Shown: positions 160 through 24,331, counted from the stretch's first letter. The stretch is 24,930 nt of DNA from Clostridiales bacterium (GCA_031255355.1 JAIRSR010000077.1:1-24930); one strand, 5' to 3'. The notes: generated by a model from the letters alone, not told the origin. Numbers and translations: made by a program.

Positions 160-996
160 TTACGTCGCGGTAATAGCGGCGCGTTCTGCGGCGAATATAA
201 AATCACGGCATCGCCGGCTGCCCTCCGCGACGTCGGCGGTGTTTTCGTACTCAAACAACACGGGAAGATCGCGCCCCCGCAACGCGTGCAGAATCGGCTT
301 CCAATCCATTTGCCCCTCGCCGCACGCGGCGGGAAGCAGTCTGCCGCTTGGCAACGGTACGAAGTCCTTAAAGTGCGCCGCCGCGACGCGCTCCCCAAGT
401 ACGCCGAGCAGCGCGGAGGGGTCGCTGTGTCCCGCCGCCCAAAGGTTTGCGGGGTCGTACAGGAACATGATATTTTCCGGGATTTCCGCAAGCATCCGCG
501 CCAACGTTTCCTCCGTGGTCGTGACGCTGTGGAAGTGCGTCACGCCGTCGTCATACGCGGTAACGCCGCCGTGTGTTTCCACCACAAGCGTCACTTTCCC
601 CCGCGCGTATTCGCCCACCGCGCGAAGCGCGGCAATCATCGCGTCCCAACGCGCTCCCACCACCTCGCCGACCGGGGAAAATCCCGCGAATATCCGCAAA
701 TACCGCGCCCGAAGCCCGACGCAAATGTCAATCACCCGCTTCACCCGCTCCGCTTCCGCAACGGGGTCGCCTATCGTGAAATCATTGCCCGCGCAAGCGC
801 AATCCAACGCGATACCGTACCGCTCGTACAGCCCGCGCGTGAACGCGAGCCGCGCCTCGTCCGCATCCAGCGGAACGCCGCCCTCCGCGTTCGCGACGTC
901 AAGTTCCAACAGCGGCAGATTCATCTCCCGCGTGAGTTCCAATTGCTTCTCGAGGGGTGTTTCACGAAACCCCCACGCCGCGTTACCGTATCGCAT
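160..996 (-). CDS. Sugar phosphate isomerase/epimerase family TIM-barrel protein (xylose-isomerase-like/AP_endonuc_2; YcjR/IolE/ketose 3-epimerase-like)
   Basis: Start reassigned from 1095 to the ATG at 996 (GGAG RBS; 1 bp after the upstream stop), giving 278 aa. The E/D/H/E metal-ligand pattern is present: VETHGG, YDPAN, AHFKD, FEYE. Confidence 0.85.
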   Translation of the reverse strand: MRYGNAAWGFRETPLEKQLELTREMNLPLLELDVANAEGGVPLDADEARLAFTRGLYERYGIALDCACAGNDFTIGDPVAEAERVKRVIDICVGLRARYLRIFAGFSPVGEVVGARWDAMIAALRAVGEYARGKVTLVVETHGGVTAYDDGVTHFHSVTTTEETLARMLAEIPENIMFLYDPANLWAAGHSDPSALLGVLGERVAAAHFKDFVPLPSGRLLPAACGEGQMDWKPILHALRGRDLPVLFEYENTADVAEGSRRCRDFIFAAERAAITAT

Positions 997-997
997 G

Positions 998-2035
998 TTA
1001 AGCACTCCAATCAAACAAAATTTTGAACACGTCCCCGCCCTTTTCCTCTTTGTACCGAAACGCCTCGGCCGCCTCCGACGCGCCCCATACCTCAACGGGC
1101 AAGTGAGAGGTATCGAATTTCCCCTCGGAAATCCACTGCAAAACCTGCTCCTTGCACCCCGCCGCGAGAGCGCAGGTCATGGAAATATTCACGTTTTTCA
1201 CAAACCAACGGTGGTAATGGTCAAAAATGATTCTGTCGGGATAATCGCCCTGCAAATGCAAACGCGCGGGGGCGTCGTCACTGCCCCAGCCGCCGTCCTT
1301 GAGGTATTTGTGTATATCGCCCACTGCGGCGGGATTGCCCGAACATTCCGCCGCGAGGTCTGCCATTTTGCCGCCCGTAAGGTCCTTTAAGCCGCGTACC
1401 GCCTGTTCCGGCGAGAACACGTAATCGGCGTAATGTTCGGCAATCGACCGCCGAAACGCGTTCTCCTCCACGCTGACGACGGTAAGCGCGGGGTACAGAA
1501 TTTTCAGTATCTGTATAAAACTAACGCCCACCATACCCGCGCCGACCACCAACGCCGTTTCGCCGTCCCGCGCCGCCAGACGCTTCACGCCTTTCAGCGC
1601 GACACACGCCAAGTACGCCAAAACCGCCTGTTGCTCCGTCACGTTATCGGGGATTTTCACCATATAGTCAAACGGACTGTCGGCGGTGAAACTGTCTTTA
1701 ACGGTATATTCCGAATTGCCGCCCCACGCGGCGCAAACGTCGCCGAATTTGCGGCATTCGTTAATCATGACGCGGTCGCCGACGCGCAAATCACCGCCGT
1801 CCGGTGCGCGTTCCACTACCCCCGCCGTTTCATAGCCCGGCACCAACGGATACCAGCACTGTTCCGGGTGCTGCATTCCCCGGTACGTTTTCATGTCCGT
1901 CCCGCTCGAAATCGCGCTGAACGCCGTCCGCGCCAAATACGCGCCCTCGCGCGGTTCGGTCAGTTGAATCTCCCGAAACGCCGCGTGGTACGGACGCTCG
2001 ATCACGATCGCCCGCGAATGTGTCGGATATTGCAT
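998..2035 (-). CDS. Medium-chain (MDR) NAD-dependent dehydrogenase, BchC/YcjQ-like subfamily; probable sugar/glycoside dehydrogenase
   Basis: Start reassigned to the ATG at 2035 (GGAG RBS), giving 345 aa. GroES-like N-domain with AISSGTD and YPLVPGYE; Rossmann motif VVGAGMVG followed by an acidic VEE. Confidence 0.8.
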   Translation of the reverse strand: MQYPTHSRAIVIERPYHAAFREIQLTEPREGAYLARTAFSAISSGTDMKTYRGMQHPEQCWYPLVPGYETAGVVERAPDGGDLRVGDRVMINECRKFGDVCAAWGGNSEYTVKDSFTADSPFDYMVKIPDNVTEQQAVLAYLACVALKGVKRLAARDGETALVVGAGMVGVSFIQILKILYPALTVVSVEENAFRRSIAEHYADYVFSPEQAVRGLKDLTGGKMADLAAECSGNPAAVGDIHKYLKDGGWGSDDAPARLHLQGDYPDRIIFDHYHRWFVKNVNISMTCALAAGCKEQVLQWISEGKFDTSHLPVEVWGASEAAEAFRYKEEKGGDVFKILFDWSA

Positions 2036-2056
2036 AACAACCACTCCTACCTTGAT

Positions 2057-4237
2057 TCAATTTTTTTCAAATTCCGATTCAATTTTTTCAAAAACCATAA
2101 CTTCCCCCGCGTACTCATACGCCTCTAACGCAATACCAATGCCCGCCCGCGCAAGCGCCGCCCCGCTGTACACCTTGCCGTTACAGCGGTAGGACGCGCT
2201 CGGGGAAAGTCCCTTTAGGAACACGCGCCGCGACTCGCCGTTCAAAGCGGTTTGCGTCTGATAAGTAAACAGCACCGCCTGCTTGCCGTCCGCGCTTACG
2301 AACTCCCACGCCGCGCCGCCGTCAAAAGGACTTTCCAAACGGTAAAAATCCCCGAACTGCACAGTTTGCCTTAGATGCTTGTATCGCGCGGCAATCTCCG
2401 CCGCCTGCCGCCGTTCCGCCGCGGATAGCCGCGTCAAGTCCATTTCAAAGCCGAAATTCCCCGCCATCGCGACGCGGGCGCAAACGTCCATGAACGCGTT
2501 GCGGCAATCGCGCCCGGTATCAATACTGCCGATATGCGCCGCCATTGTGATTGGCGGGTAAACCACCGAAGTGCCGTGCTGGATTTTCAGCCGCGCGATC
2601 GGGTTGGTGTTATCGCTCGTCCACGTTTGCGGCATATAATACAACATGCCCGGGTCGAACCTCCCGCCGCCGCCGCCGCAACCCTCGAACAGCACGTTGG
2701 GGAAGCGTTCGGCAAGCGTTTCCAACACGCGGTACAGCCCTAACATATACTTATGCGGTTGGGTTTGGTCCGCCGTTTCGGTTAGGTTGCGGTTGCAATC
2801 CCACTTGACATACTCGATGTTGGCGGAGCGGAGTACTTCCGACACCGCGCCGATGATGTATTCGCACACTTCCTCCCGCGACAGGTCCAGCACAAGTTGA
2901 TAGCGGTTTTCCGTGCGTTTGCGTCCCTCGGCGAATACGCACCAATCGGGGTGCGCCCGATAGAGCAGACTATCCGGCGACACCATTTCCGGCTCGAACC
3001 ACAGCCCGAACTTCATACCCATACCGTTCACCGCATCCGCGACGCCGCGCAAGCCGTTGGGAAGTTTCGCGGAGTTGACGTGCCAATCGCCGAGGGAACA
3101 AGTATCGCCGCCGCGCGCACCGAACCAACCGTCGTCCAGCACGAAAAGTTCCAAGCCGATTTCCGCGCCGACTTTCGCGATGTCAAGCAACTTTTTTTCG
3201 TCAAAGTCAAACCCGGTCCCCTCCCAATTGTTAATCACCATCGGGCGGGGCGCGTCGCGGTACTTCCCCCGGCAAAGCCGCTCACGGTACATACGGTGGT
3301 ACACGCGGCTCATGCCGCCGATTCCCTCGCCCGAATGGACCATAACCACCTCGGGCGTTTGGAACACGTCCCCCGGGGCAAGCGGCCAGTCGAAGCCGAA
3401 AGGATTCAAGCCCGCGGTTACGCGTGTGCCGCCGCAGGAATCCCCCTCCGCCGACATACTGAAATTGCCGCTGTACACAAGGGAAAAGCCGTACACCTCG
3501 CCGCTGTTCTCGTCCGCGTTTTTCGCCGTAAGCGCGATAAACGGATTGTGCGCGTGCCCGCTCATGCCGCGCTTGGAGTCAATTGTGACGATCCCGCGCC
3601 CTACGGATAATACCTCCGGGTACCGCTCCCGCGCCCAATCGCCCCGCAAATGCAGCAGGTTGTACTCCTTGCCGTAAAAATCCACACACGCGGACTGCGC
3701 CGAAAGCAGTGCGATTTCCCCCGCGCCCGCGTTTTCATAGCGGATATTGCGCGTAATCACGTCGTACTCCTCAAAAACGCTGTAACAAAGGACGGCTTTC
3801 AGCCCGGTCAGCGCGTCGCGCAAGGTAACTTCCAGCGTTTGCGCTTCGGCGGCGTTTTCGGCGTAGGTAGCGGGCAAGCCGCGCAACTTCTTTTTGCCCC
3901 GGTAGATTTGATACCCCCCGTAGGCGAACTCCGACACCGTAGAGCCGTCGCCGTACCGCGCGTGGAATGCCGGTACGCGGTAATCCCCGCCGCCCACCAC
4001 TGAAAATTCCAACTTCAAATCGCTAAGGAACACGCGGTTTTCGCTGTCAAGCGGCACGTGGAACGCGTTCGCGCGGGAAAATATAAATTCCTCCGGCAAA
4101 TAGGTCAAATCTACGCCGTGTTCCAACCGCGCACCCCAATACAAGTGCGTTAAATACAGCCCCCGGTATACGGAAAAAATATAACTCACGCGCTTCGTTT
4201 GCAGATGAAATTGGCCGTTGTGATATTTGATACTCAT
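2057..4237 (-). CDS. Alpha-galactosidase, glycoside hydrolase family 36 (cytoplasmic)
   Basis: 726 aa with GH36 motifs NNWEG, FVLDDGWFG, FGLWFEPEMVSPDS, YVKWDCNR, GGGGGRFD and WTSDNT. No signal peptide. Confidence 0.95.
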   Translation of the reverse strand: MSIKYHNGQFHLQTKRVSYIFSVYRGLYLTHLYWGARLEHGVDLTYLPEEFIFSRANAFHVPLDSENRVFLSDLKLEFSVVGGGDYRVPAFHARYGDGSTVSEFAYGGYQIYRGKKKLRGLPATYAENAAEAQTLEVTLRDALTGLKAVLCYSVFEEYDVITRNIRYENAGAGEIALLSAQSACVDFYGKEYNLLHLRGDWARERYPEVLSVGRGIVTIDSKRGMSGHAHNPFIALTAKNADENSGEVYGFSLVYSGNFSMSAEGDSCGGTRVTAGLNPFGFDWPLAPGDVFQTPEVVMVHSGEGIGGMSRVYHRMYRERLCRGKYRDAPRPMVINNWEGTGFDFDEKKLLDIAKVGAEIGLELFVLDDGWFGARGGDTCSLGDWHVNSAKLPNGLRGVADAVNGMGMKFGLWFEPEMVSPDSLLYRAHPDWCVFAEGRKRTENRYQLVLDLSREEVCEYIIGAVSEVLRSANIEYVKWDCNRNLTETADQTQPHKYMLGLYRVLETLAERFPNVLFEGCGGGGGRFDPGMLYYMPQTWTSDNTNPIARLKIQHGTSVVYPPITMAAHIGSIDTGRDCRNAFMDVCARVAMAGNFGFEMDLTRLSAAERRQAAEIAARYKHLRQTVQFGDFYRLESPFDGGAAWEFVSADGKQAVLFTYQTQTALNGESRRVFLKGLSPSASYRCNGKVYSGAALARAGIGIALEAYEYAGEVMVFEKIESEFEKN

Positions 4238-4260
4238 ACTCTATCCCCTTTAGAATCTAT

Positions 4261-7143
4261 CTAAAAATTATACAAAATATACTGTCTGCCGCCGCCGTGC
4301 GCGGGAATCCAAAGGACGCGGCTGGCGTGTTGTTCGCCGTATTGATACATACCCTTAAAATCACTGATGGTCGCGTTGCGCACCTGCGGCTTTGCGCCGA
4401 CCGTAGCGTCATACACGATCGCGCCGCCCATCTGCCAATAATAGTTCGTGTTCATATGCCCCGTTACGTGGATTTTGCGCCGTCCGTCCGCGCCGTACCT
4501 GCCTGTATCGATTACCAAGCCGCTTTGCGAATCCACGTAGTACACAACCCCCGCGTACAGGCTGCGGATACTGCCGCCGTCCGTCAGCGCGTCGAAGTCC
4601 AAATCGGGGAAGGTCTTTGCCGTAATCGGGATATTGTAATAGGTATGCCGCCGATACGATGATACCACATCATTCCCCCGCGTGTAAAGTTGAATCAAAT
4701 CGCCCGCTTCCAAGCCGTCAAACGTGTGTTCGTCCCGCCCGATATACTCTTTCATGACAACGCCCGTCGCCACCTCGACCGCGCCGACCGCCGCGCCGTC
4801 CTTGTCCAATTTTTTGAACACGCGGCTGACCATGACGGGGAACGCGAAGCGCGTGGTGATAATTTCCTGCTCCGCACCGCCCGCGTCGGCGTAAATGAGG
4901 GCAATTTGCGGACGCATATCAAAGCCGCAATCGTAAAGTTCGATGGAATACGGCCGCGCGTTGGCGGGCGCTTGCACGCTGTAATCCTCGTCGTGAAACG
5001 TTTCCGGCGAGGGAACAAAAAAGTATTTGTTCGGCTTGTGATAGCCCGTATCGTCTGCGGCGCGGAGGAGTCTGCCGCTCGTATCCTCCACCAGATTGTA
5101 CTCGTCGATCGGCACACTGCGCTGTAAATGCGCCGACTCCACCAAGCCGTTTTGATTGATTAGATCCTCCGGCAAGCAAGTTTCCAATTCGGCGAGCATA
5201 CCGTCGGCGGTCAGGCGGTAGCGAATCATCTGTGAAATCCCGAACCCGCCGCGCAACATTCCCGCCACGCGCTTCAAAAGGGTCAACGCCTCGTCTTTGC
5301 TAAGGGAATCGCCGTTGACGTTCGTCTTTCGCTCTGTCGTAACAACGATAATCTCACCGTCGTCCGTCATGATTTTCAGTTGCAAAGTATCGGAAAGCGC
5401 ACCCCGCGCGGAGCCGGCGTTGATGAGGTACCCGTACCGCAACGCGTCCGTCGCGCCGCTTTCTTTGAACGCAACGATTTCCCCCGAAAAGTCAAGATAA
5501 AACAACCCTGTTTTCCCCAACGTCAACGCGCCGTCAAGTTCGTTAAAATAATTGCTCGGCGAACTTTTGAACGTCTTGCCGCCGATTTCCACATTCCCCT
5601 CGCCGTCAATCGCTTCTATGGTACCCTCGATTTTCCGCGTAGAAATAACAAACCGCGTGTAAACCGCGTCCCCGGCGGGAAGCAAATGCCCGCGCTGTTC
5701 CTCGTACTTATCGGCAAACGCGCTGAGTACGCAATCGGCGGGAATCCGCGAAACATCTATCGTCTTTGCCGGCTTGCCGTCCTTGCCGAACACGCCGGGA
5801 ACGTCTGCATAATATTCAACCTCCGTGCCGTCGGCGTTGGCGAACTCCAAAATCGTGTCCCCGCTCATACGCGCCGTAATCGGCAAAAGGCTGTACTGCG
5901 GTGTGAGCGTGATTGTATGTCCGCCGTCCGCCGAAGCCCGTTGCAGCAAAAGATTCTCGTAGCGGTTGACGCACACCAAATCGTAAATATCGTCGTCATA
6001 ATTGGAAACCAGCGTAATACTGCCCTGTTGGATTTCCAACGCCGCCCCCAAACTCGGAACCGCCGCCGCCGTGCCGTTGATTAGCACCGTAGGCGCGTCG
6101 CTCAACACCGCCGTCAGTACGCGGCGGCCGTCGTCCTCCGTATAACGAATCGTTTTCGCGGACGGCGTATAGTTCACATAATCCTCCGCGTCGATTTCAA
6201 TTTCCGCGACCTTTCTGTGGTCGATGAGGTAAATCACCGTATACGCGCCGTCGTCATCACGGTAAAAGAACTGTGTCCGATACCCCAAACGCGCCGCGCC
6301 CGCCTTTTGGTCAAGGGCGTATACGTCCTCATCTATTTTCACCGTACCGCGCTTCACCGCGCCGCCCGATAAGCCGCCTGCACGGGTCGCCGTGACAATG
6401 CCGTCCCCCTCGTAAACCTCGTGCCGTTCGGAAAGAAACGTTTCCTCCGTATTCACCGCGTAGGTGTTCCGCTCCCCCGCGCGGTTTTTTTGCAAGGGAT
6501 GGCTTCGTAACATGTTATAGATAAACTCCGCGAACACGCCGCGCGTCATGCCGTCCGCGCTTCGGAACGATACCCCCGCCCGCCGCGCCGCCGCGAAGTA
6601 CCCCTCGGGATAGCCGCCGCTGACCCGCGCGAACTCCTCATACCCCATGACGCGCGTCAACAGCACCACCGCCTCGGTATAGGTAAGCCGCGTGTTGACG
6701 TTGACGGTATTATCCGCGTTGCCTTTCAAAATTCCGTATGCCGCCAACGCCTGCACCGCCGAAAAATACGGCGAATCCCTGTCTACGTCATAAAACGTGC
6801 CGATCGGCGCGTCCGCGAACGCCGCGGTATCGATCCCTGCGGCGGCGGCGGTAATCACACACGCATCCCCTTTTAATACAGGCGCGTCGGGTCGAAATGT
6901 GCCGTCGTCAAAGCCCCGCATAACGCCAAGCGTATCTAAAAACCCCGCGTACAACTTCAACGAACCCTCCCGCGCGTCGGAAAAGGCGGGCGCCTGTTCC
7001 CCCGGGGCAGATTCCACCGCTTCGGCAACGTCGATATTGTCATACTCATGCCCCGCGCCGCTTAAATCGTCCGCGCTTAGCGAAACACAGCGGGTAAGGA
7101 TAATCAGCAGCGCGGCGGCGGTCGCGGTAAAGCGTCTTTTCAT
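4261..7143 (-). CDS. Secreted SLH-domain (S-layer-like) protein, 960 aa (P6)
   Basis: AAAGGAGG RBS; signal peptide MKRRFTATAAALLII...SLSA. N-terminal SLH repeats (LGVMRGFDDGTFRPD; YGILKGNADNT..LTYTE; TRGVFAEFIYNML) at about 6505-6983, then ~740 aa of beta-rich sequence with no recognisable catalytic motif. Confidence 0.85.
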   Translation of the reverse strand: MKRRFTATAAALLIILTRCVSLSADDLSGAGHEYDNIDVAEAVESAPGEQAPAFSDAREGSLKLYAGFLDTLGVMRGFDDGTFRPDAPVLKGDACVITAAAAGIDTAAFADAPIGTFYDVDRDSPYFSAVQALAAYGILKGNADNTVNVNTRLTYTEAVVLLTRVMGYEEFARVSGGYPEGYFAAARRAGVSFRSADGMTRGVFAEFIYNMLRSHPLQKNRAGERNTYAVNTEETFLSERHEVYEGDGIVTATRAGGLSGGAVKRGTVKIDEDVYALDQKAGAARLGYRTQFFYRDDDGAYTVIYLIDHRKVAEIEIDAEDYVNYTPSAKTIRYTEDDGRRVLTAVLSDAPTVLINGTAAAVPSLGAALEIQQGSITLVSNYDDDIYDLVCVNRYENLLLQRASADGGHTITLTPQYSLLPITARMSGDTILEFANADGTEVEYYADVPGVFGKDGKPAKTIDVSRIPADCVLSAFADKYEEQRGHLLPAGDAVYTRFVISTRKIEGTIEAIDGEGNVEIGGKTFKSSPSNYFNELDGALTLGKTGLFYLDFSGEIVAFKESGATDALRYGYLINAGSARGALSDTLQLKIMTDDGEIIVVTTERKTNVNGDSLSKDEALTLLKRVAGMLRGGFGISQMIRYRLTADGMLAELETCLPEDLINQNGLVESAHLQRSVPIDEYNLVEDTSGRLLRAADDTGYHKPNKYFFVPSPETFHDEDYSVQAPANARPYSIELYDCGFDMRPQIALIYADAGGAEQEIITTRFAFPVMVSRVFKKLDKDGAAVGAVEVATGVVMKEYIGRDEHTFDGLEAGDLIQLYTRGNDVVSSYRRHTYYNIPITAKTFPDLDFDALTDGGSIRSLYAGVVYYVDSQSGLVIDTGRYGADGRRKIHVTGHMNTNYYWQMGGAIVYDATVGAKPQVRNATISDFKGMYQYGEQHASRVLWIPAHGGGRQYILYNF

Positions 7144-7181
7144 TACGGATTCCTCCTTTGCCTTGAAAGATTACTCCCGGG

Positions 7182-9437
7182 TTAGCGGGCAGCATTGTAT
7201 AGCCGATACAGGATAGACGCGGCTTCGGCGCGTGTCGCCGCCTCATTTGTCCGTGGGTATCCGTTTTCGTACAGCCGCGCGAACAGTCCGTAGGCGATTG
7301 CCGTCAAAACGTCCTCCCGCGCCCACGCGGAAACACCCGATAAATCCTTAATGCCAAGCGCGTCAACCGATAGACCGCCCTGCCGCGCAACACCCCCGCG
7401 CAAACGGTACGCGCGGTTCGCGGCGGCGGCGATTTCCTCCGCCGTCACTTGGTCGTCAGGCGCGAAAACCGCTTCCCGCTTGCCTTTCAAAACGCCCTTG
7501 TAAAAAAGTCCGTCCGCGCCGTCCGCGTACCACGCGCCGTCAGGTACGTCAGTGAAATGCTTCGGATAGCCCCCGCCAAGCCCCAGCACCCGCGCCAGCA
7601 TCACCGCAAATTCCGCGCGTGTCACGGGTTCATAGGGCGCGAACACCGTCGCCGTCTTGCCTTGAATAAAGCCCAAATCGGTCATTTTCGCGATTTCATT
7701 CCGCGCCCAACAGCCGTCTATGTCGGCGAACGCCGTTTCAACGGGCGCGTCCTCCCGTTCGCCGCCCGCCTGCCCGCCCAAGCCCGCGATTTCCGCCGCC
7801 GTTTCAAGGGTCAGCACCGCCAAACTCTTGTTCGGCATATGATAATTCTTGAAATTCGCGGTGTTCCGCTCCGTCGTCACCGCCGTCACAATATCCGCTT
7901 CTTTCGCGCTGTAAATAAAGGATTGCGTGTTCGGCGCGGTGAACACCGTTTCGCTTTTCAGCGTGTAATCATGCTTCAAATCAAAGGCGATATTGAAGTC
8001 AAGGTCTTCCCGCATATTTACCAGAATAATTTTCAAACGGTTCCCGCCCTCCGCCGTCACCAACGCGCTCATTCGGAGGTTGTCGTCCGTTTCGTCCGTC
8101 ACCGGGTCGTCAGAGGTCAAAACGCTCCGCACCACGCGGTCGCCCAGACCGCCGGCATAGACGTGGTACATCTGCCCAACGGGTGATTGGTATAACGTGC
8201 CGCCGACGTACTGCGCCAAGCCCCACCAGCGGCTTTCCTCCCCGCCGTCAAAAAAGGAGTGATACGTCGCGCCGCCCATATCGCCGCGCTTCATCATGAC
8301 GTTAAAGAACTGCGCCGTACTCAGCGCGGAAAATAAATTGATTCTGCCCGCGTCGTCCAAGCCCTCGTCCGCGAAACGCGCGTGTTCCGTCAATAAAAAC
8401 TTCACGCCGTGCCCCGCGCCCAAAACACGCTCCAACGCGTCCGACATATCGTCGAACAAGCCGCTCATGTACGCCGTGGACATGCCGTCATAATAGGGGT
8501 GGAACGCGAGGTAGTCGCAATCCGCGCCAATCGCCCGCGCAACCCCCTCCGTCCATTTGATATGCGATTCCGCTTCGCTCCAAGGCGCGGTTTTGCCGCA
8601 CATGACAAACTTCGCCTCCGGCGCGGCGGCGCGAATCGCCGCGATATGCTTCGGCGCGATTTCAGAGTACCATTCCAACTTCGACTGTGAAAACGCCCAC
8701 ACATTATCCTGTTCCGGCTCGTTCAGCGCGGAGTCGATTTCATTCCCCAACTCAAAAGCGAACACGTTCACCGGCTCCGTCATGCCGTACATGGCGCGGA
8801 GTGCCCCCCACTCGGACTGCCCCGCCTCATGCGTCAAAAACGCGGCGAGGTTGGCGTTGTCCTCCGGCGTGGCGTGTGTGACGGAAATTGTGCATAAATA
8901 CTGACCGTTCGGGTTGATGGACCGCATCAGTTTGACGAACTCCAACGGCCCCATGTTGGTCGCCACGCGTCCCTCACTGCCAAGCGGCGAGACGTCCCGC
9001 GTGTACTTGTTGCCGTCCACCCGCGCACTGCCGGAGCGGGTATTCATTTGCCCGATATTCAAAATCAAATTCGTTTCCTCAATCGCCGCGCCGCCGTACC
9101 GAAACAGCGGAAAGTCAAACACACGCGGCGCGAACGCTTGAAATTCGGGCGCGAAGTCCGTTCCCTCCAGGATATGTCTGTGGCTGCTCTCGTACTGCAC
9201 TCCCAGCATTTCCATCACCGTCGCGTGGAGAGGGTCGTCCTCGTCCACTGTCAAAACAGCGTCCGCCGTCGCGGTTGCGGTCACACTTTCCCGCAATCGC
9301 GCCTGTTCGCTGTCATTCAACGCCGCGTACGCGGGAAGCGAAAGGGTACACGCCGTCAGCAGTAACAGCGCGATACATTTTTCATACCTTCGGTTATACC
9401 TTCGGTTATACCTGCGGTTATACACGCGGTTATACAC
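7182..9437 (-). CDS. Secreted, SLH-anchored clan GH-A glycoside hydrolase, GH51-like and divergent (P5)
   Basis: Likely GTG start at 9437, 8 nt after GGAGG (the ORF track uses 9446). Signal peptide, then W..LR.MYG..EP, FELGNE (acid/base), DYLAFHPYY, LLTEH (candidate nucleophile) and a C-terminal beta-sandwich. Three SLH repeats at about 7190-7730 (TRAE, TAEE, TRAE). Confidence 0.8.
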   Translation of the reverse strand: MYNRVYNRRYNRRYNRRYEKCIALLLLTACTLSLPAYAALNDSEQARLRESVTATATADAVLTVDEDDPLHATVMEMLGVQYESSHRHILEGTDFAPEFQAFAPRVFDFPLFRYGGAAIEETNLILNIGQMNTRSGSARVDGNKYTRDVSPLGSEGRVATNMGPLEFVKLMRSINPNGQYLCTISVTHATPEDNANLAAFLTHEAGQSEWGALRAMYGMTEPVNVFAFELGNEIDSALNEPEQDNVWAFSQSKLEWYSEIAPKHIAAIRAAAPEAKFVMCGKTAPWSEAESHIKWTEGVARAIGADCDYLAFHPYYDGMSTAYMSGLFDDMSDALERVLGAGHGVKFLLTEHARFADEGLDDAGRINLFSALSTAQFFNVMMKRGDMGGATYHSFFDGGEESRWWGLAQYVGGTLYQSPVGQMYHVYAGGLGDRVVRSVLTSDDPVTDETDDNLRMSALVTAEGGNRLKIILVNMREDLDFNIAFDLKHDYTLKSETVFTAPNTQSFIYSAKEADIVTAVTTERNTANFKNYHMPNKSLAVLTLETAAEIAGLGGQAGGEREDAPVETAFADIDGCWARNEIAKMTDLGFIQGKTATVFAPYEPVTRAEFAVMLARVLGLGGGYPKHFTDVPDGAWYADGADGLFYKGVLKGKREAVFAPDDQVTAEEIAAAANRAYRLRGGVARQGGLSVDALGIKDLSGVSAWAREDVLTAIAYGLFARLYENGYPRTNEAATRAEAASILYRLYNAAR

Positions 9438-9440
9438 GCG
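9381..9440 (-). repeat. Five-copy 12-bp imperfect tandem repeat spanning the P4 stop and P5 start
   Basis: Minus-strand units: CGCGTGTATAAC, CGCGTGTATAAC, CGCAGGTATAAC, CGAAGGTATAAC, CGAAGGTATGAA. They encode (R)VYN RVYN RRYN RRYN RRYE in P5. Confidence 0.95.
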
Positions 9441-13364: not shown

Positions 13365-13369
13365 GCCGA

Positions 13370-15973: not shown

Positions 15974-16003
15974 GTGCTTCTACCTCCTTTCGCGCGGACG
16001 CGC

Positions 16004-17887
16004 TTAATCAAGATTGATTGTGGGGCATAAGGGCGAGAGCAGAGCAAAGCCGTCCTCCGCCCAAAGGAATAGCCTGTGCGCACTGCCGACCTCCTCCGAA
16101 AGATTCAGCGTAACCGGCGCGGCAATACTTTCCGCCGGAACCTTTTCAAAATCGAAGCCAATCAGCCTGTTGCCGCTGTAACTTGCGGCAAGCACGGTAA
16201 TATATTCCGTAACCTTGGACGCGTAAGCGGCGGGGATGCTCACCGTAACCGTGCCGCCGTCCACTTCCCAATGCAACCGCCCCGCTACGCCGGAAACACT
16301 GACGGCAGCAAACTGATTGAAGTCGTTTTCGTTTGCGGATTTTGAGCCGGCTTGGAAAATAACGTCATCCGTCCCACGGTTCAAAAACGCGCCGTCGTCC
16401 GTCAAGGTAACGCTCCACGCGTTGTTCCCCGCGTCATATTCCTGCTCCTTGCTTCCTCTGAACGTAATCCCGCCGGAAGCCGCGTCTATCGTAATCACCG
16501 CGTTCATCCAAGAGGTTCCCCCCGCCGTGGCGGAGGTTGCCGCCGCGTAAGCCGTCTGTATGCCGTTGACCACTTTGCGGAGGTACGGACGCGCCCCGCC
16601 GCTCTCGTGAATGCCCGCCTCGTAAAAACTTTGCTCATCACTGCTCACGTTAAAGCGCATGACCGTCTGTACACCGTTGTACTTCGCGAATACAACGGCG
16701 ATTTTCGTCACGTCATACGCCGCCGCGCCGGGGGAATGCAGGTTAATCAAACCGTACTCTATATCACTTTGCCCGGAAATATTAAGCGATCCGTTGATAA
16801 ACGCGCGAACGCCGTCGTAACCGCCGGCAACGTACCCCTTGAACACGTTGGAACGTTTCCAATAACCGTTGACGTTCGGCCGGGCGTCGCCCACCACCGT
16901 CGCGCCGCCGGAATCCGCCGTCGTGCCGCGCACCGCCGTCCCCGCCGTCGTTTTCGCGTTGTTCGCGTTGTATGCGGAGAAATCATCATAGAAGATATTG
17001 ACCTCTCTGTTCGGCGTGCCGTAAATATCCACATAATCTACCGAAACCCGGTTATTTTCATTGCGGGGACGAAGCCACGCGCCGCCGATTTGGAACACCA
17101 TATTGCCTATGCCTCTTTCGAGGAATTCCCCCTGTTCCGTGTATACACCGCTGTACAGCACTGTGTTATCGTTGCCGTTTTTCAGGGTATATGAAATTGT
17201 TTTCGCGTCCTTGTCAATGTCCACTTCAGAGATAAACCATGAAGTACCGCCGTGTGTTTGCGTATCCGCTGCCACAAGTTCCGTCCCATGTCCGTTTACC
17301 ACCTTGCGGATATAGGCGTAGCCCGTTTTGCCGCTGCCCGCTATCGTTTCCTCATTTGCTCTCAATCCGCTAAGCCCTACCTCGTAAAAGGACTTCTCAT
17401 CCGCGCTGACGTTAAACCGCTGGATTGCCCGCGCGTCGTTATACCGCGCGTATCTTACCTCAAACTTCGTCAAACTGTAATCCACGGCGCGGTCGGAGTA
17501 CAAATTCACCATAGACTGTTCCCATGTGCTGTGTCCCGCAATTTCAAGGGTGTCATCGCCCTCGATAAACGTTTGTATGCCATACGCGCCGATGTCCGTG
17601 TTAATCCACCCCGTACCCGTTTCGCTTACGTTAGAACGCTTCCAATAGCCGCCCAACGCCGCGCGGTCGTCCGCTACCACCGTCGCGCCGCCGGAATCCG
17701 CCGTCACGCCGCGCACCGCGTTTGCCTCGCCCCTTTTGGCGTTGGCGTCGGTGTAGGTATCAAACTCGTCATGGAATATGAGCGCACCCTCAGCCGAAGC
17801 GGTAACCGGCGCGATTCCCGCCAACATACCGCACAGCAGCGCGAACGCCGCCAAAACCGAAATCCCTCTTTTGATGACCTTTAACAT
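16004..17887 (-). CDS. Secreted protein with two tandem copies of an unrecognised ~240-aa beta-rich domain and the shared C-terminal domain; no SLH (P1)
   Basis: AAGGGGG RBS; signal peptide ending ASA-E. Internal duplication 17018-17779 versus 16289-16996. Confidence 0.85.
   Translation of the reverse strand: MLKVIKRGISVLAAFALLCGMLAGIAPVTASAEGALIFHDEFDTYTDANAKRGEANAVRGVTADSGGATVVADDRAALGGYWKRSNVSETGTGWINTDIGAYGIQTFIEGDDTLEIAGHSTWEQSMVNLYSDRAVDYSLTKFEVRYARYNDARAIQRFNVSADEKSFYEVGLSGLRANEETIAGSGKTGYAYIRKVVNGHGTELVAADTQTHGGTSWFISEVDIDKDAKTISYTLKNGNDNTVLYSGVYTEQGEFLERGIGNMVFQIGGAWLRPRNENNRVSVDYVDIYGTPNREVNIFYDDFSAYNANNAKTTAGTAVRGTTADSGGATVVGDARPNVNGYWKRSNVFKGYVAGGYDGVRAFINGSLNISGQSDIEYGLINLHSPGAAAYDVTKIAVVFAKYNGVQTVMRFNVSSDEQSFYEAGIHESGGARPYLRKVVNGIQTAYAAATSATAGGTSWMNAVITIDAASGGITFRGSKEQEYDAGNNAWSVTLTDDGAFLNRGTDDVIFQAGSKSANENDFNQFAAVSVSGVAGRLHWEVDGGTVTVSIPAAYASKVTEYITVLAASYSGNRLIGFDFEKVPAESIAAPVTLNLSEEVGSAHRLFLWAEDGFALLSPLCPTINLD
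16289..17779 (-). repeat. Intragenic tandem domain duplication in P1 (third copy in P4 at 11089-11808)
   Basis: Both copies share IF.D.F..Y..NAK, AVRG.TADSGGATVV, GYWKRSNV, A.YN, RFNVS.DE.SFYE.G, Y.RKVVNG, GGTSW and RG...FQ.G. Confidence 0.9.
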
Positions 17888-17923
17888 AATTTTAACCCCC
17901 TTGCTTCAAAATAAATTCTCACG

Positions 17924-18775
17924 TCACTCTTTCACCGCACCCGCCGCCAAGCCGGATACGAAGTACTTGCCGGCACAGGCATACGCCGCCACCACGGGAA
18001 TCAGCGCGATTGCGGAACCCGCCAGCATGAGGTTCCACGACGAAGCCGCGCCGCCTCCGCTTTTCAACGCCATCAGCCCTACAATCAGCGTCTGCTGTTT
18101 TGGATTTGTCATGGTAAAAATCGTCGGCATGATGTAATCGTTCCAACTCCACTGAAATGTCAAAATCGCCACCGTCGCTAAAATAGGCTTCAGCATAGGC
18201 AGAATCACGCGGCAATAGATGCCGAAAAAGTCACAGCCGTCGATTTTCGCCGCCTCGTCCACCGCACGCGGAATCGTGGACACATAGCCGCGCACCAGGT
18301 ACACGTTCACAATCGGCACGCCGAACACGTTCAGCAAAATCAGCGCGGGAAGCGAACGGTCCAGCCGCAGAAGCCCCAGCACTTGAAACGTGGCGTAAAT
18401 CCCGATATTCCCCACCTTGATGAACATCAGCGATATAAAACAGCCGAAAATCAGCCGCTTGAAAGGGAACCGCCCCCGCGCGAACACGTACCCGCCCATA
18501 GAAGCCGTCACCACCGCGATCAGCACGTTTGCCAAGGTGTAATACAGGCTGTTCAGCCCCATAAGCCCCGCGTTAAAAGCGGGGTCCGTCCACACGGTGA
18601 CGTAATTTTCCAGCGTGGGCGCGGCGGGGAACACCCGCGCCGGCTCCGCCATAATCTCCATGTTGGTCTTAAAGGACGACGCGACCGTGTACACCAACGG
18701 AAACGCGGTAATGACAAAGATCACGCCCAAAAACAAGTAAATGAAAATATTTTCAATGAGCAAGCGTTTTTTCAT
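17924..18775 (-). CDS. Carbohydrate ABC transporter permease (CUT1, MalG-like)
   Basis: Multiple transmembrane segments; EAA loop VDEAAKIDG; WSWNDY motif. Confidence 0.95.
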   Translation of the reverse strand: MKKRLLIENIFIYLFLGVIFVITAFPLVYTVASSFKTNMEIMAEPARVFPAAPTLENYVTVWTDPAFNAGLMGLNSLYYTLANVLIAVVTASMGGYVFARGRFPFKRLIFGCFISLMFIKVGNIGIYATFQVLGLLRLDRSLPALILLNVFGVPIVNVYLVRGYVSTIPRAVDEAAKIDGCDFFGIYCRVILPMLKPILATVAILTFQWSWNDYIMPTIFTMTNPKQQTLIVGLMALKSGGGAASSWNLMLAGSAIALIPVVAAYACAGKYFVSGLAAGAVKE

Positions 18776-18810
18776 CAGGCGATCCCCCTTAGACCGAAGT
18801 CGAATATTCC

Positions 18811-19755
18811 TTATACTGACGGCATTTTTTTGCTTACCTTGTCATAGGCGAGGGCGACTACCGCGAAAATCACCGTCGTAACGACGGACATCGCGCAGCC
18901 GTACCCCAAGCGCGGCTTCGCCCCCGCCGCCATAAAGCCCGGCACGAATTGACGCGTCAGATACGCCATGACGGAAAGTGTCTGCCCGCCCGGTGCGCCG
19001 TTGGTGGAAGTGAGGATAAACTCATTCACCCCCAGCGTCCCCACCAACGACAGCAATAAGATGATTTGCAGCACCGGCGCGATCATCGGCACCGTTATTT
19101 TGCGGAACGCCGTAAAGCCTGACGCGCCGTCCAACCGCGCGGATTCGTAAATATCCTCTGAAATCCCCGCGAGCGCCGCCATAAAATACATGACGTTGAT
19201 TCCGAAAGTGCTCCACACGCCGCCCGTGACCAACACGGCGAACGCCGTCCCCCTCCCGGCGAACCAATCAACGCCCTCACGCACCGCGCCGATTTTTAAC
19301 AGCGTACCGTTCACCCAGCCGAAGTACCCGAACATATTGGTAAAAATCAAGCCGACTACCGCCACACTGATAATGTTAGGCAGATAGAACACCGCGCGGA
19401 AGAAGTGCGACCCGCGCAGCCGCCTGTTCAGCATCAGCGCAAGAATCATGGCAAGGCATAATTCTATAGGGATTTTCAACGCCGCGTACAAAAGCGTATT
19501 CGCCCAGGTACGCCAATACGTCAGGTCTACGGTGAACATACTGATGAAGTTTTGCAAACCGATAAAGCGCGTGTTCGCGGCAATGCCGTCATAGGCGTAA
19601 AACGCCCAGCGAAACGTCCAGATGATAGGGTATACCGATAATACCAAAAACCCGATAATCTGTGTGCCGATCATGAGGAAGCACTGCAACGCCTCTTTGT
19701 GTTTCTCGCGTTGGATCGAGGCGGGCGACCCTCCCTGCCTTGTTGTATTTTTCAA
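18811..19755 (-). CDS. Carbohydrate ABC transporter permease (CUT1, MalF-like)
   Basis: TTG start with AGGGGG RBS; FIGLQNF motif; EAA loop IYESARLDGAS. Confidence 0.95.
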   Translation of the reverse strand: MKNTTRQGGSPASIQREKHKEALQCFLMIGTQIIGFLVLSVYPIIWTFRWAFYAYDGIAANTRFIGLQNFISMFTVDLTYWRTWANTLLYAALKIPIELCLAMILALMLNRRLRGSHFFRAVFYLPNIISVAVVGLIFTNMFGYFGWVNGTLLKIGAVREGVDWFAGRGTAFAVLVTGGVWSTFGINVMYFMAALAGISEDIYESARLDGASGFTAFRKITVPMIAPVLQIILLLSLVGTLGVNEFILTSTNGAPGGQTLSVMAYLTRQFVPGFMAAGAKPRLGYGCAMSVVTTVIFAVVALAYDKVSKKMPSV

Positions 19756-19784
19756 CGATTTGTCCCCCCTAAGAGCCTTTCACA

Positions 19785-21167
19785 TTACCGCACGGGGTTC
19801 CAACCGGGAATGTCCCGCGCTTTTGGGTCGCGATCCGGGTGCGTCGCGTAATACCGCTGTTTCGCGTCGTTTTTTAAGTCGGTATACTTCACTAACGCGT
19901 CCTTGACCGGCGTTTTGCCCGTCCACACTTCCGAAAGGAAGTATTCGTAAAATTCGGGCTGTCCCCCCAATACAGAGGAAATATTCGGCTCCCACGAGGT
20001 GCGGACGCTAATCTCCGTCAACGCGCAAAACTCTTTCCAGCCCTTTGGCGCACCGTCCAAAGATACGTCCTTGACCGTTTGCCAATTGTAAGGGATTTCC
20101 ACCCCCGCTTGGTAAGTGGAAGTAACAAAATCGTCGCTTGTGAAAAATTTAAGCACTTCCATGATTACATCGCCGCCCGCATCGGAAAGTGCCTTGCGCG
20201 TGACGTAAAACGTAGAGCCGAACTCCATACGCTGTAAGTATTTTTCCGCGCCGTCTACCGTGGGATACGGCGCGACGCCCCAATCAAACTGCGCGGGGAA
20301 CTGGTCGTTGTACACGCCTACGTCAAAGGAATACGCCATTTTCATTCCGATTTTCCCAAGCGCGAACTGTGCCCGCGCGGGGTCGTTATCCAAGCCCTCC
20401 GCGCCGGGGTAGATGCTGCCGTCCTCTTTCATGCCCAAATACGCGCTCATAATCGGCTCTAACGGCGTGTAATCATAAATTCCGGTACCGGGATTGTACC
20501 CCTCGTGCCCCGCGCTGCTCAGCAGCGGGTGCAGAAATTCGCTCCCGAAAAACCCGCCCCATTTCAGCGGCAAAATAAAGCCGTACTCCCGCTTGTCCGG
20601 GTTGGTCAGCCGTTTCGCGTATTCGCGGAGTTCCGCGTAACTTTTCGGCGGCGTAGGCTCGCCGTTCGCGTCCACGATTCCCGCCGCGCGGAACATTTCC
20701 TTGTTATACACCATGCCCTGTGTCGCCGCGCCGTAGGGCAGGGAATAGTACTTGTCGCCGATATAATTCCGCTCTACCCGCGCTTCGTCCTTGTACTTGT
20801 CAATCAGCGCGTTGCCGCCCGGCAACTCATTATACGGCGCGATGAAGTCCGATTCCACCATTTTTTCCACGTCAACGCCCGCGATAAATAAATCCGGCGC
20901 TTGCCCGCTTTGCAGCGCGAGTTCGATCTGTTGGGTCAGCGCGCTGCCCTCCTTTACGACGTAATCTATCATGACGCCCTTTTTCGCGCCCGCATCCTGG
21001 TTCCACGCGTTAATCAGCCTGTCATAAATCGCTTTGCTGCCGGTGCTGTCCGACCAAATGACGACCTTTTTTACCCCGCCGTCCGTCTGTCCTCCCCCGC
21101 AGCCCGCAAGCAAGCCTGTGAGCGCGGTCAAGATGAGTGCCGCCGCCAACTTTCGCTTACCAATCAT
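19785..21167 (-). CDS. Carbohydrate ABC transporter substrate-binding lipoprotein (SBP family 1)
   Basis: GGGAGG RBS; lipobox LLAG-C23; typical SBP1 segments SGQAPDLF, YSLPY, MVYNKEMF, DWGVAPYP. Confidence 0.95.
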   Translation of the reverse strand: MIGKRKLAAALILTALTGLLAGCGGGQTDGGVKKVVIWSDSTGSKAIYDRLINAWNQDAGAKKGVMIDYVVKEGSALTQQIELALQSGQAPDLFIAGVDVEKMVESDFIAPYNELPGGNALIDKYKDEARVERNYIGDKYYSLPYGAATQGMVYNKEMFRAAGIVDANGEPTPPKSYAELREYAKRLTNPDKREYGFILPLKWGGFFGSEFLHPLLSSAGHEGYNPGTGIYDYTPLEPIMSAYLGMKEDGSIYPGAEGLDNDPARAQFALGKIGMKMAYSFDVGVYNDQFPAQFDWGVAPYPTVDGAEKYLQRMEFGSTFYVTRKALSDAGGDVIMEVLKFFTSDDFVTSTYQAGVEIPYNWQTVKDVSLDGAPKGWKEFCALTEISVRTSWEPNISSVLGGQPEFYEYFLSEVWTGKTPVKDALVKYTDLKNDAKQRYYATHPDRDPKARDIPGWNPVR

Positions 21168-21187
21168 GAAAATTCCTCCCTCATATC

Positions 21188-21248
21188 ATTATAAGAACCT
21201 GTCTAAGGATTTCATTTTCATTATGACATAGAATGGAGGATAAGTGAA
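21188..21248 (-). promoter_or_regulatory. Two candidate sigmaA promoters for the SBP-led operon
   Basis: Distal: TTCACT (21248-21243), 17 bp, TG-N-CATAAT (21225-21220). Proximal: TATAAT (21193-21188) with a poor -35, as would be expected for an activator-dependent promoter. Confidence 0.5.
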
Positions 21249-21285
21249 GTAACAGTTTTTGTATACGGCGGCGCAAAACGCGTCA

Positions 21286-21309
21286 ACGGCGGGGATTTCT
21301 CCCCGCCGT
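21286..21309 (-). terminator. Stem-loop, probable intrinsic terminator of the oxidoreductase pair
   Basis: Perfect 10-bp stem ACGGCGGGGA/TCCCCGCCGT with a GAAA loop on the minus strand, ~65 bp after the 21375 stop. The U-tract is weak (TGACGCGTTTT). Confidence 0.65.
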
Positions 21310-21374
21310 GCCGTATCAGTATAAATTGAAATATTTGGATATTACGCAAGATTTTATTTTTTATGACAAATTTT

Positions 21375-22208
21375 TTACGCTTCGACATTCACCCAAGTGA
21401 AAGGTGTTTCCAACGCGCGTTGCCCCGCGTGACGCGCCGCCATGATTGCCAGCGTCCGCGCGTGCGGTACGGGGATTTCGCCTGTTTCAAAAAATTGCAG
21501 CATTTCCGCGATAAACCGCTCGAACAGGTCGGATTTCACCTCGACGGATTGCGAATGACCGTCCGCGTACCCGATTTGCGCGGAAAATCCCGCGTTCGCG
21601 AAATGCGCCGTCCGCGCGGTACGTCCGTCGGCAAACGCAAAGACCAACGCGGGGTGACGCGCCGTTCCCACGGACATCACCCGCTTTACAACGCCGTCCG
21701 TCAAATAGATGATTGGTTCGATTTGGTGGATGGAATAGATAGCAAAACTGCCCGGGCCGACGGTTTGCACCGTTTCGATCCCCGCGCGTTCCACGCGGCT
21801 GTATTCCTCCACAAATCCCAGCGCGGAACAGGAATAGCACGGTGTGCCGTGCGCGTCAGCCAAGTCAAACATACGCTTCGCCGCCGCGAGGTCCGGCGCG
21901 AAAGTCTTATCCACATACACAGGCTTACCGCTCCTGAGCGGCAAATCCACCAACGTTTCATGCTGTTCCGGGTTGTCCGGCGAAAGTACCACAATACAAT
22001 CGCTGTGTTCCACAACTTCCTCTATCGTTTGCGCGAGGGGGATTCCCGTGCGCCGCGACCATTCGGCGTTGGTCACGCCGCCCGGCTTGTCACACTTCGC
22101 CCACGCGGAAGCGACTTGAAACGCGCCGCCGTGCTTTTTGATAAAGCCGGGGTAATTGTCGGCGTGCCATTCGTCCAGATAATAATCAATAAATCCTATT
22201 TTTTTCAC
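21375..22208 (-). CDS. Atypical Gfo/Idh/MocA-like oxidoreductase (Rossmann fold)
   Basis: GTG start with GGAGG RBS, GTGA overlap with the upstream gene. DCIVVLSPD..H..L...L..GKPVYVDK pattern. 277 aa; lacks the canonical GxGxxG and EKP motifs. Confidence 0.75.
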   Translation of the reverse strand: MKKIGFIDYYLDEWHADNYPGFIKKHGGAFQVASAWAKCDKPGGVTNAEWSRRTGIPLAQTIEEVVEHSDCIVVLSPDNPEQHETLVDLPLRSGKPVYVDKTFAPDLAAAKRMFDLADAHGTPCYSCSALGFVEEYSRVERAGIETVQTVGPGSFAIYSIHQIEPIIYLTDGVVKRVMSVGTARHPALVFAFADGRTARTAHFANAGFSAQIGYADGHSQSVEVKSDLFERFIAEMLQFFETGEIPVPHARTLAIMAARHAGQRALETPFTWVNVEA

Positions 22209-23275
22209 AGTGTAACCTCCTCTTGTTTTTCCGCAGAACGGTAAATCGCGTCGAGAAGCCGCGCCGTAACAAGCACCGTGTCGATATGGGACGGCAATTT
22301 CTCCCCTGTTTCCGTACAGCGCAAAAACGCGTCGATCTCGTTTTGGAACGCACCGCCGAACATACCGCCCGCGCCAAGCGTGTAGCCTGTTTTGGTGAGC
22401 ATACCGTCCGCCGCGCCGTATTGGACGAAATCCGCGCCGTAGTTCAGACGAATCCCCGCCTTGGTACCCATAAAGTCAATGAACATCTCGTTTTCGCCGA
22501 TATTTTGCGCCCACGCGCCGTTGAACGTAATCACGGGACCGGACGTGCGGACCACGCCCGTCACCGCGTCGTCCACATCGCAGACGCCGTGCGGGTTCGG
22601 CGGCCCCGCCCACATATCGGTGTAGGTGTAATCGCCAATCGGGTTGCCTAACTTGCAAAACGCCGCGCCGCTCACCGTGCGCGGTAAAGGGTCGCCGCAG
22701 CAGTACATCACAATGTCGAGGAAGTGTACCCCCCAATCGATCAGCACCCCGCCGCCGGAGACCGCCTTGGTGGTAAACGCGCCGCCCAGCCCGGGAATCG
22801 CGCGGTGAGAGCGGAAACTGACATACACGCTGTAGACCTCCCCCAACCCGCCGCCGTCGATAATCGCCTTAACGCGGTTCACCGCGTCGTTAAAGCGGTT
22901 GACTACGCCGATGTTAAGGATTTTCCCCGTTTCGCCGCATACGCGCTGCATTTCCAACGCCTCGGTCAAAGTCCGCGCCGCAGGCTTTTCGCAAAGCGTG
23001 TGCTTGCCCGCGTTCAGCGCGTCTACCGCGATCAAGCCGTGCGCGTCGTTGGGCGTGCAGACCGATACCGCGTCCACCGACGCGTCCGCGAGTACTTCCT
23101 TGTAGTCAGTCACCGCCTTGCCGCAACCGTATTTTTCTACCGCCGCCCGCGCCCGCTCCGGCAAAATATCGCAAAAATACGCGATTTCCGCGCTGTCGTT
23201 CGCCAAATACGACGGTATATGCGCCGCGTTCGCGATACTGCCGCAGCCAATGATACCTATTTTGTGCTTGGACAT
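22205..23275 (-). CDS. Gfo/Idh/MocA family NAD-dependent oxidoreductase (YcjS-like glycoside 3-dehydrogenase candidate)
   Basis: Motifs KIGIIGCGSIA, VSVCTPN..H, CEKP and GGGVLIDWGVHFLD. Confidence 0.9.
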   Translation of the reverse strand: MSKHKIGIIGCGSIANAAHIPSYLANDSAEIAYFCDILPERARAAVEKYGCGKAVTDYKEVLADASVDAVSVCTPNDAHGLIAVDALNAGKHTLCEKPAARTLTEALEMQRVCGETGKILNIGVVNRFNDAVNRVKAIIDGGGLGEVYSVYVSFRSHRAIPGLGGAFTTKAVSGGGVLIDWGVHFLDIVMYCCGDPLPRTVSGAAFCKLGNPIGDYTYTDMWAGPPNPHGVCDVDDAVTGVVRTSGPVITFNGAWAQNIGENEMFIDFMGTKAGIRLNYGADFVQYGAADGMLTKTGYTLGAGGMFGGAFQNEIDAFLRCTETGEKLPSHIDTVLVTARLLDAIYRSAEKQEEVTL

Positions 23276-24256: not shown

Positions 24257-24301
24257 ACATACTCCCCCATGTTTATAATTCAGACGGGCTCTGATAAAAA
24301 A

Positions 24302-24331
24302 ATTATACCGCATTGAAATCGATTTTGTCAA
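24302..24331 (-). promoter_or_regulatory. Consensus sigmaA promoter for the araC-like gene
   Basis: TTGACA (24331-24326), 18 bp, TATAAT (24307-24302). Confidence 0.8.

Follow-up and report, generated by a model that had tools for sequence, protein, structure and literature searches.

The stretch of DNA considered here (the window) is 24,930 nucleotides long and makes up the whole of contig C192 in a fragmented metagenome-assembled genome (MAG) of an uncultured termite-gut member of the Clostridia. It encodes a Gfo/Idh/MocA oxidoreductase (Gfo), a medium-chain dehydrogenase/reductase (MDR) followed directly by a xylose-isomerase-like TIM (triosephosphate isomerase) barrel (TIM), a CUT1-type ATP-binding cassette (ABC) transporter and an alpha-galactosidase of glycoside hydrolase family 36 (GH36). 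We consider it probable that this is a glycan-utilization locus built as a mosaic of three modules, each inherited independently elsewhere. The original prediction had read Gfo, MDR and TIM as one enzyme set resembling E. coli YcjS, YcjQ and YcjR, serving a galactoside or guloside route that would bypass the Leloir pathway. The genes it named are confirmed by Pfam and NCBIfam, all of them on the minus strand; the notion that Gfo, MDR and TIM form a single co-inherited unit does not survive a comparison with other genomes.

AraC-Gfo-sGfo, in which sGfo is a second protein with the Gfo fold, and MDR-TIM are independently inherited modules. The comparison covered 80 loci with members of the Gfo family (64-71% identity), nearly all from gut Clostridia, and 80 with members of the MDR family (57-73% identity). 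An MDR of the window type is present in none of the 80 Gfo loci, and any Gfo at all lies within 10 kb in just four of the 80 MDR loci, in each case with an identity of 22-38%. Six genomes have both modules (SVJZ01, JAZQIO01, CAKVOK01, G005, G016 and G020, the last three from among 40 relatives examined), and there the two are always on separate contigs. Within the window itself, Gfo and MDR-TIM are separated by 20 kb.

The module around Gfo has a consistent composition of its own. The gene for sGfo adjoins Gfo in 43 of the 80 loci and that for AraC in 25, and in about 10 of the Gfo loci the tblastn matches to Gfo and sGfo lie end to end or have an end coordinate in common, which fits the GTGA overlap of the Gfo stop and the sGfo start that is seen in the window, where alone the junction was read directly. 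An extended form, Gfo-sGfo-TIM6-Gfo3 in either order, occurs in L002, L010, L014, L016, L067, L008, L025, L033 and L063; here TIM6 stands for a xylose-isomerase-like barrel distinct from the window TIM, and Gfo3 for an IolG-like paralogue. Formally, this dehydrogenase/TIM/dehydrogenase arrangement resembles YcjS-YcjR-YcjQ more closely than the window genes do. Loci of Acutalibacter and Neglectibacter, which form a derived clade, have a Gfo-TIM6 pair lacking sGfo. In the genome from which the window comes, contig C151 carries an orthologue of TIM6 (66-74% identity), and TIM6 is more likely than the window's own TIM to be the TIM-barrel partner of Gfo-sGfo.

The MDR module is equally well defined. 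TIM adjoins MDR in 74 of the 80 MDR loci, and the TIM orthologues of this cassette are 38-56% identical to the window TIM and show the same tight coupling. They belong to a recurrent operon of LacI/GntR, MDR (with a GYE motif), TIM, a GH57-like protein (461 amino acids) and a radical SAM/SPASM protein (326 amino acids), of which L099:9971-14225 and L094:9980-14254 are examples among L082-L161. The MDR-TIM-GH57-like-radical SAM series is found in Clostridia, Lentisphaerota, Verrucomicrobiota and Planctomycetota, and its neighbors include GH78-like, GH3, GH63/MGH1, GH116, GH29 and GH31 genes and a heparinase-like lyase. The GH57-like protein gives weak GH57/GH38 matches only, and a literature search turned up no paper describing the cassette. 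Compared with it, the window has the first two genes only, with GH36 ahead of them and a new promoter behind. In L094 and in L099, which comes from the cultured Ructibacterium gallinarum DSM 107454, the closest relatives of the window's transporter are also neighbors of the MDR cassette (solute-binding protein 43-46%, permeases 49-60% identity), and the pair of surface proteins SLH754-SLH960 lies ahead of it in L105 and L107; MDR-TIM therefore goes with the transporter and the surface proteins, and AraC-Gfo-sGfo has the look of an addition.

Several further observations concern these cassettes. A divergent GH36-like gene sits between MDR and TIM in three loci (L083:4145-6268, L110:11038-13164 and L117:10550-12676); these inserted genes score 109 bits for Melibiase and are 24% identical to the window GH36. 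They hint at a recurring association of the MDR-TIM pair with GH36-type enzymes. Family GH57 includes alpha-galactosidases, and GH36 was considered as a non-orthologous replacement of the GH57-like protein; with the inserted GH36-like genes at 24% identity and the GH57-like matches weak, this is no more than an idea. Elsewhere in the window genome a radical SAM/SPASM homologue (C133:1969-3234, 37-44% identical to that of the cassette) directly follows an SLH960-like C-terminus, and the genome may have a second, rearranged copy of the system. The GH57-like gene was not found in this genome, which is 55% complete. A paralogous locus at C58:1-13115 has an ABC transporter 46-60% identical to that of the window, a TIM6-like barrel (25-28%) and SLH-type proteins, and paralogues of SLH926/SLH754 are found on C254 and C46; the window genome carries several versions of such a locus.

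Gfo (22205-23275; PF01408, PF22725 and PF02894), a cytoplasmic protein, has as its best sequence match in the PDB the DgpA of human gut strain PUE (structures 7XR9 and 7XRE; 192 bits to 7XR9 over residues 1-349, about 38% identity), followed by DgpA1 (168 bits), 3e18 (102), levoglucosan dehydrogenase LgdA (82) and inositol dehydrogenase 4hkt (79). For the E. coli comparison the ycj region of K-12 was retrieved, the real sequences were compared and the whole K-12 chromosome was searched with the window proteins. Gfo and YcjS align over 280 residues with 33% identity and 138 bits; in the chromosome search YcjS is again at the top, with 134 bits, and the next paralogue follows at 65. The motif R..PG.G..FT.K...GGG.LID.G.H.LD, with F.K.G, which the original prediction had named as common to Gfo and YcjS, is indeed present in the actual E. 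coli protein. All scores against curated NCBIfam models fall below their cut-offs (IolG 117 against 355, LgdA 109 against 650, BT_2159 59 against 650 and BT_2158 52 against 750), so that Gfo does not group with IolG. Bit-score ranking, the reciprocal search in E. coli and a family tree with YcjS as its root together place Gfo as a distinct subfamily inside the DgpA/YcjS clade of Gfo/Idh/MocA, and the window member falls within the sGfo-associated portion of that tree.

In DgpA the sugar pocket is formed by K100, R159, D182, H186 and W166 (PMC9939296); the enzyme, an oxidoreductase with tightly bound NAD(H), oxidizes C3'' of the glycoside, a 3-oxo-sugar serving as hydride acceptor (bioRxiv 10.1101/816074). 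In the Gfo family the GxGxxG motif (G10-C-G12), D36, K97, D180 and H184 are invariant (32-59 members), and K97, D180 and H184 align with DgpA K100, D182 and H186. DgpA R159 and W166 are not kept; Ser/Ala156 and Leu163 align with them, and R155 and R158 are present instead. Because Gfo is specifically YcjS-like, still more DgpA-like, and not an IolG, it is a reasonable prediction that it acts as an NAD(H)-dependent glycoside C3 oxidoreductase.

Its partner sGfo (21375-22208, 277 amino acids) is predicted to have a complete two-domain Gfo/Idh/MocA fold (mean predicted local distance difference test score, pLDDT, 93.9); against solved members the template-modeling (TM) score is about 0.8 and the identity 11-16%. 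A sequence comparison of sGfo with YcjS gave no match. The glycine-rich cofactor loop reads GFIDYYLDEWHA, GxGxxG being absent; DKT replaces EKP, and the Asp that would lie four residues ahead of the conserved His is missing. These features hold without exception in 29 homologues. From the lost cofactor motifs together with the conserved translational coupling to Gfo, we infer that sGfo is a non-canonical subunit, perhaps non-catalytic or specificity-setting, rather than a third dehydrogenase. The third dehydrogenase originally counted in the locus is this Gfo-fold protein without GxGxxG. No sGfo-type partner is mentioned in the DgpA papers cited here.

MDR (998-2035; ADH_N and ADH_zinc_N) is a BchC-like member of its superfamily, with BchC as its best NCBIfam match (105 bits, cut-off 291). 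GYE stands in place of GHE and Ser at the zinc-cysteine position; a GAGMVG motif is present, and Glu190, which is invariant, suggests NAD as the cofactor. The TIM gene (160-996; PF01261) starts one nucleotide beyond the MDR stop (TAA-C-ATG). Its metal site, Glu-Asp-His-Glu, is intact, with E140, D181, H208 and E249/E251 invariant in the family, and its structural model is of high confidence (pLDDT 96.8). The nearest structure is the isomerase Art22 (Z 29.7; Foldseek, VIA-align), below which comes a plateau at Z 24-27.6 of ketose 3-epimerases, UlaE, IolE, AsbF, AtHYD and xylose isomerases. The fold accordingly does not reveal the reaction class, since epimerases, isomerases, dehydratases and hydratases share this flat plateau below Art22 and it does not discriminate among them.

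E. coli YcjS, YcjR and YcjQ form a route from D-gulosides to D-glucosides. That the window might encode a similar three-step epimerization of galacto- or gulo-glycosides to glucosides through 3-keto intermediates, and hence a Leloir-independent use of alpha-galactosides, has several points in its favor: a 3-keto-guloside is, as had been argued, identical to a 3-keto-galactoside; Gfo is specifically YcjS-like; Gfo, TIM and MDR beside a CUT1 transporter mirror ycjNOPQRS; all the genes are co-directional in one locus with GH36 nearby; TIM keeps the full metal site, as epimerases do; and YcjQ and the window MDR both lack the classical GHE. The likeness does not extend to the other two proteins, however. 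MDR matches YcjQ at 35 bits over 190 residues (BLAST), and the profile alignment of the MDR family with YcjQ covers the cofactor-binding half only; in the K-12 search the rspB region comes first, at 47 bits, and YcjQ second, at 32. TIM matches YcjR at 21.6 bits (E-value 0.017, BLAST) and finds nothing in the K-12 chromosome at E<=1, and the profile match of the TIM family to YcjR (hhalign, 89% probability, 17% identity) is a fold-level one. The NCBIfam fingerprints differ as well: YcjR scores 115-117 bits for psicose 3-epimerase and IolO, neither of which the window TIM matches, and YcjQ scores 77-80 bits for Tdh/IolM and 33 for BchC, against the 105 bits for BchC of the window MDR. As judged from these comparisons, one of the three proposed correspondences, that of Gfo, is real, and the other two are at the superfamily level only, MDR and TIM belonging to a separate cassette. 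Adding that MDR-TIM is never linked to Gfo in the 160 loci or the 40 relatives, that the genome contains galK and galE and that a GH36 hydrolase already releases galactose, we regard the three-step route as very doubtful.

The presence of ordinary galactose genes bears directly on this point. Domain searches bear out the absence of any sugar kinase or galKTE gene from the window, on which the Leloir-independent proposal had drawn. The window is an entire contig, so genes absent from it say little about the genome (assembly 1.37 Mb in 281 contigs), and in fact galK and galE are adjacent at C108:2685-4120 of the same genome; galK is represented by its C-terminal part, cut by the contig end (138.6 bits, profile positions 246-386), and galE exceeds its cut-off with 450 bits. 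The Leloir pathway is at least partly present in the organism, and the missing gal genes of the window are no sign of a route around it. GH36 (2057-4237; Melibiase 469 bits) has the N-terminal, Melibiase and C-terminal GH36 domains all present and matches AgaB (4fnq) at 793 bits over residues 7-707; by its sequence it is an ordinary cytoplasmic alpha-galactosidase of the AgaA/AgaB type. A galactoside route that avoids the Leloir enzymes would be notable if true; it is neither needed nor supported here.

A different joint scheme is oxidative cleavage, in which Gfo/sGfo would oxidize C3 of an imported glycoside and MDR would reduce the 3-keto sugar, in parallel with DgpA/DgpBC, LgdA/B1/B2/C and the Agrobacterium GlycDH/OGE/HYD/Gfo systems. 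The original prediction had offered DgpA-type oxidation and elimination as its second choice, and this does fit the closest characterized relative of Gfo, which is DgpA, better than the three-step proposal. Published operons join oxidoreductases with TIM barrels of the sugar-phosphate-isomerase type (PMC10628242; PMC7676230), the best PDB sequence match of the window TIM, a weak one, is AtOGE (8BVK, 20.7 bits), and AtHYD is within the structural plateau at Z 24.5. The structures nevertheless favor no eliminase or hydratase over the epimerases, IolE or AsbF, and AtOGE is outside the top 50 Foldseek matches of TIM. The known systems, moreover, use two TIM barrels or a DgpB/C pair together with a Gfo-type reductase, not an MDR, and the independence of the two modules argues against any joint route. 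We think oxidative cleavage by the combined set unlikely.

Catabolism of the inositol type, for instance of myo-inositol from galactinol by way of GH36, with Gfo as IolG, MDR as IolM and TIM as IolE/IolO, as in Bacillus and Thermotoga, would be hardly credible for this locus. All three folds do occur in inositol pathways, and NCBIfam gives weak matches to IolG (117 bits, as above), IolM (49) and IolE (18); the cut-offs for the last two are 450 and 290, and all three scores are far short. DgpA and YcjS match Gfo far better than do inositol dehydrogenases, and no gene of the iolB, C, D, J or N type is present in the window.

The view that we prefer, of a mosaic of independently inherited modules, has to face several observations that weigh against it. 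Each module is without its usual partners here, TIM6 and Gfo3 not being beside Gfo-sGfo and the GH57-like and radical SAM genes not following TIM, and this could mean that the two modules complement each other. There is no convincing terminator between the Gfo module and MDR-TIM in what is one co-directional string of genes, and it is possible that in the window the two are co-regulated and take part in a joint pathway, which nothing but their co-location supports. The sugar-binding loop of the Gfo family, FR[SA]HR[SA]IPGLGG, differs from the RR..P.W of DgpA and YcjS, and the substrate of Gfo, and even its regiochemistry, are uncertain as a result. Finally, galT was not found with either TIGRFAM model, a result that is uninformative in a genome only 55% complete. 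The fullest form of a joint pathway would have Gfo and sGfo as a hetero-oligomeric glycoside 3-dehydrogenase with a specificity-setting or regulatory pseudo-dehydrogenase subunit, recombined with an MDR-TIM pair that lacks its usual GH57-like and radical SAM companions, into a hybrid 3-keto route that epimerizes or cleaves a hydrolase-resistant sugar derived from alpha-galactosides; this we hold to be quite improbable.

The contig has 15 genes, all on the minus strand and with intergenic gaps of -4 to 207 bp, in the transcription order AraC, Gfo, sGfo, CUT1 solute-binding protein, two permeases, U627, U867, U388, SLH926, SLH754, SLH960, GH36, MDR and TIM. The AraC-family regulator (23369-24331) has a cupin sensor and an HTH_18 domain (Pfam). 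A sigma-70-like site with 12 of 12 consensus positions at 24331-24302 (minus strand) overlaps its listed start, a TTG at 24331; the real start codon is probably downstream of this, and AraC-Gfo-sGfo possibly has a promoter of its own. At the other end, beyond TIM, a consensus promoter at 150-122 (minus strand; TTGACA-17-TATAAT with TG, 12 of 12 positions and an extended -10) opens the next transcription unit and is followed by AGGAGG and an open reading frame with a membrane or signal peptide, starting MLISAVAALAVALVYV, that leaves the contig (1-121). This promoter, ribosome-binding site and membrane-protein frame indicate that the operon ends at TIM, and no GH57-like or radical SAM gene starts in the 159 bp that remain beyond it. 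The public runs that contain the window sequence are solely DNA, from a termite-gut metagenome study.

The transporter consists of a solute-binding lipoprotein (19785-21167, SBP_bac_1, with a visible lipobox LAGC) and permeases at 18811-19755 and 17924-18775 (BPD_transp_1). The six secreted or surface-layer-homology (SLH)-anchored proteins occupy 4261-17887. U627, U867 and U388 are without Pfam domains, SLH926, SLH754 and SLH960 are SLH-anchored, and U867 and SLH754 are candidates for distant GH51/GH39-like members of clan GH-A. A shared domain of roughly 200-260 amino acids (34-37% identity) is present twice in U627 (16004-17887) and once in SLH926 (9430-12210), residues 29-290 and 328-522 of the former corresponding to 127-374 of the latter.

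Put together, the mosaic could operate as follows. The secreted and wall-anchored proteins, two of them GH51/39-like, would probably free oligosaccharides from a glycan of the hemicellulose type, and the CUT1 importer would take these up. Gal-Ara side chains of the gum-arabic type are a speculative choice of substrate, suggested by the GH39/51-like surface enzymes. GH36 would then strip off alpha-galactose, which would enter the Leloir route by way of galK and galE. MDR-TIM would carry out an NAD-dependent oxidation and then a metal-dependent isomerization, epimerization or elimination on some sugar; elsewhere the pair presumably acts with the GH57-like and radical SAM/SPASM proteins and not with Gfo. 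Gfo-sGfo, under its own AraC regulator, would oxidize or reduce C3 of a glycoside.

What remains of interest in this locus is two widespread cassettes without characterization, rather than an analogue of YcjQRS. One represents a large branch of the DgpA/YcjS clade in strict gut anaerobes, whose enzymes nearly always come translationally coupled to a degenerate Gfo-fold partner. Assigning a function to either cassette would improve the annotation of hundreds of gut genomes. The NAD-dependent 3-keto-glycoside chemistry of DgpABC, Lgd, AtOGE, BT2156-2160 and YcjQRS is emerging as a second, non-hydrolytic form of bacterial glycoside processing, against which the window can be set system by system.

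Like YcjQRS, the locus combines a Gfo, a TIM barrel, an MDR and a CUT1 transporter; unlike the ycj genes, its Gfo is not adjacent to MDR-TIM and the two belong to separately inherited modules. With the four-enzyme operons for oxidation, elimination, hydration and reduction, namely GlycDH/AtOGE/AtHYD/Gfo of Agrobacterium, LgdA/B1/B2/C of Bacillus smithii and BT2156-2160 of Bacteroides, it shares the general logic of a C3 oxidoreductase, xylose-isomerase-like TIM barrels and a reductase (PMC10628242), though unlike them it has one TIM barrel and the candidate reductase is an MDR. DgpA and the window Gfo, finally, have in common the fold, GxGxxG, the EKP lysine, the sugar-binding D..H pair and an origin in gut Bacillota; in contrast to the DgpA locus, the window has no DgpB or DgpC genes, and the partner of its Gfo is a degenerate protein of the Gfo fold.

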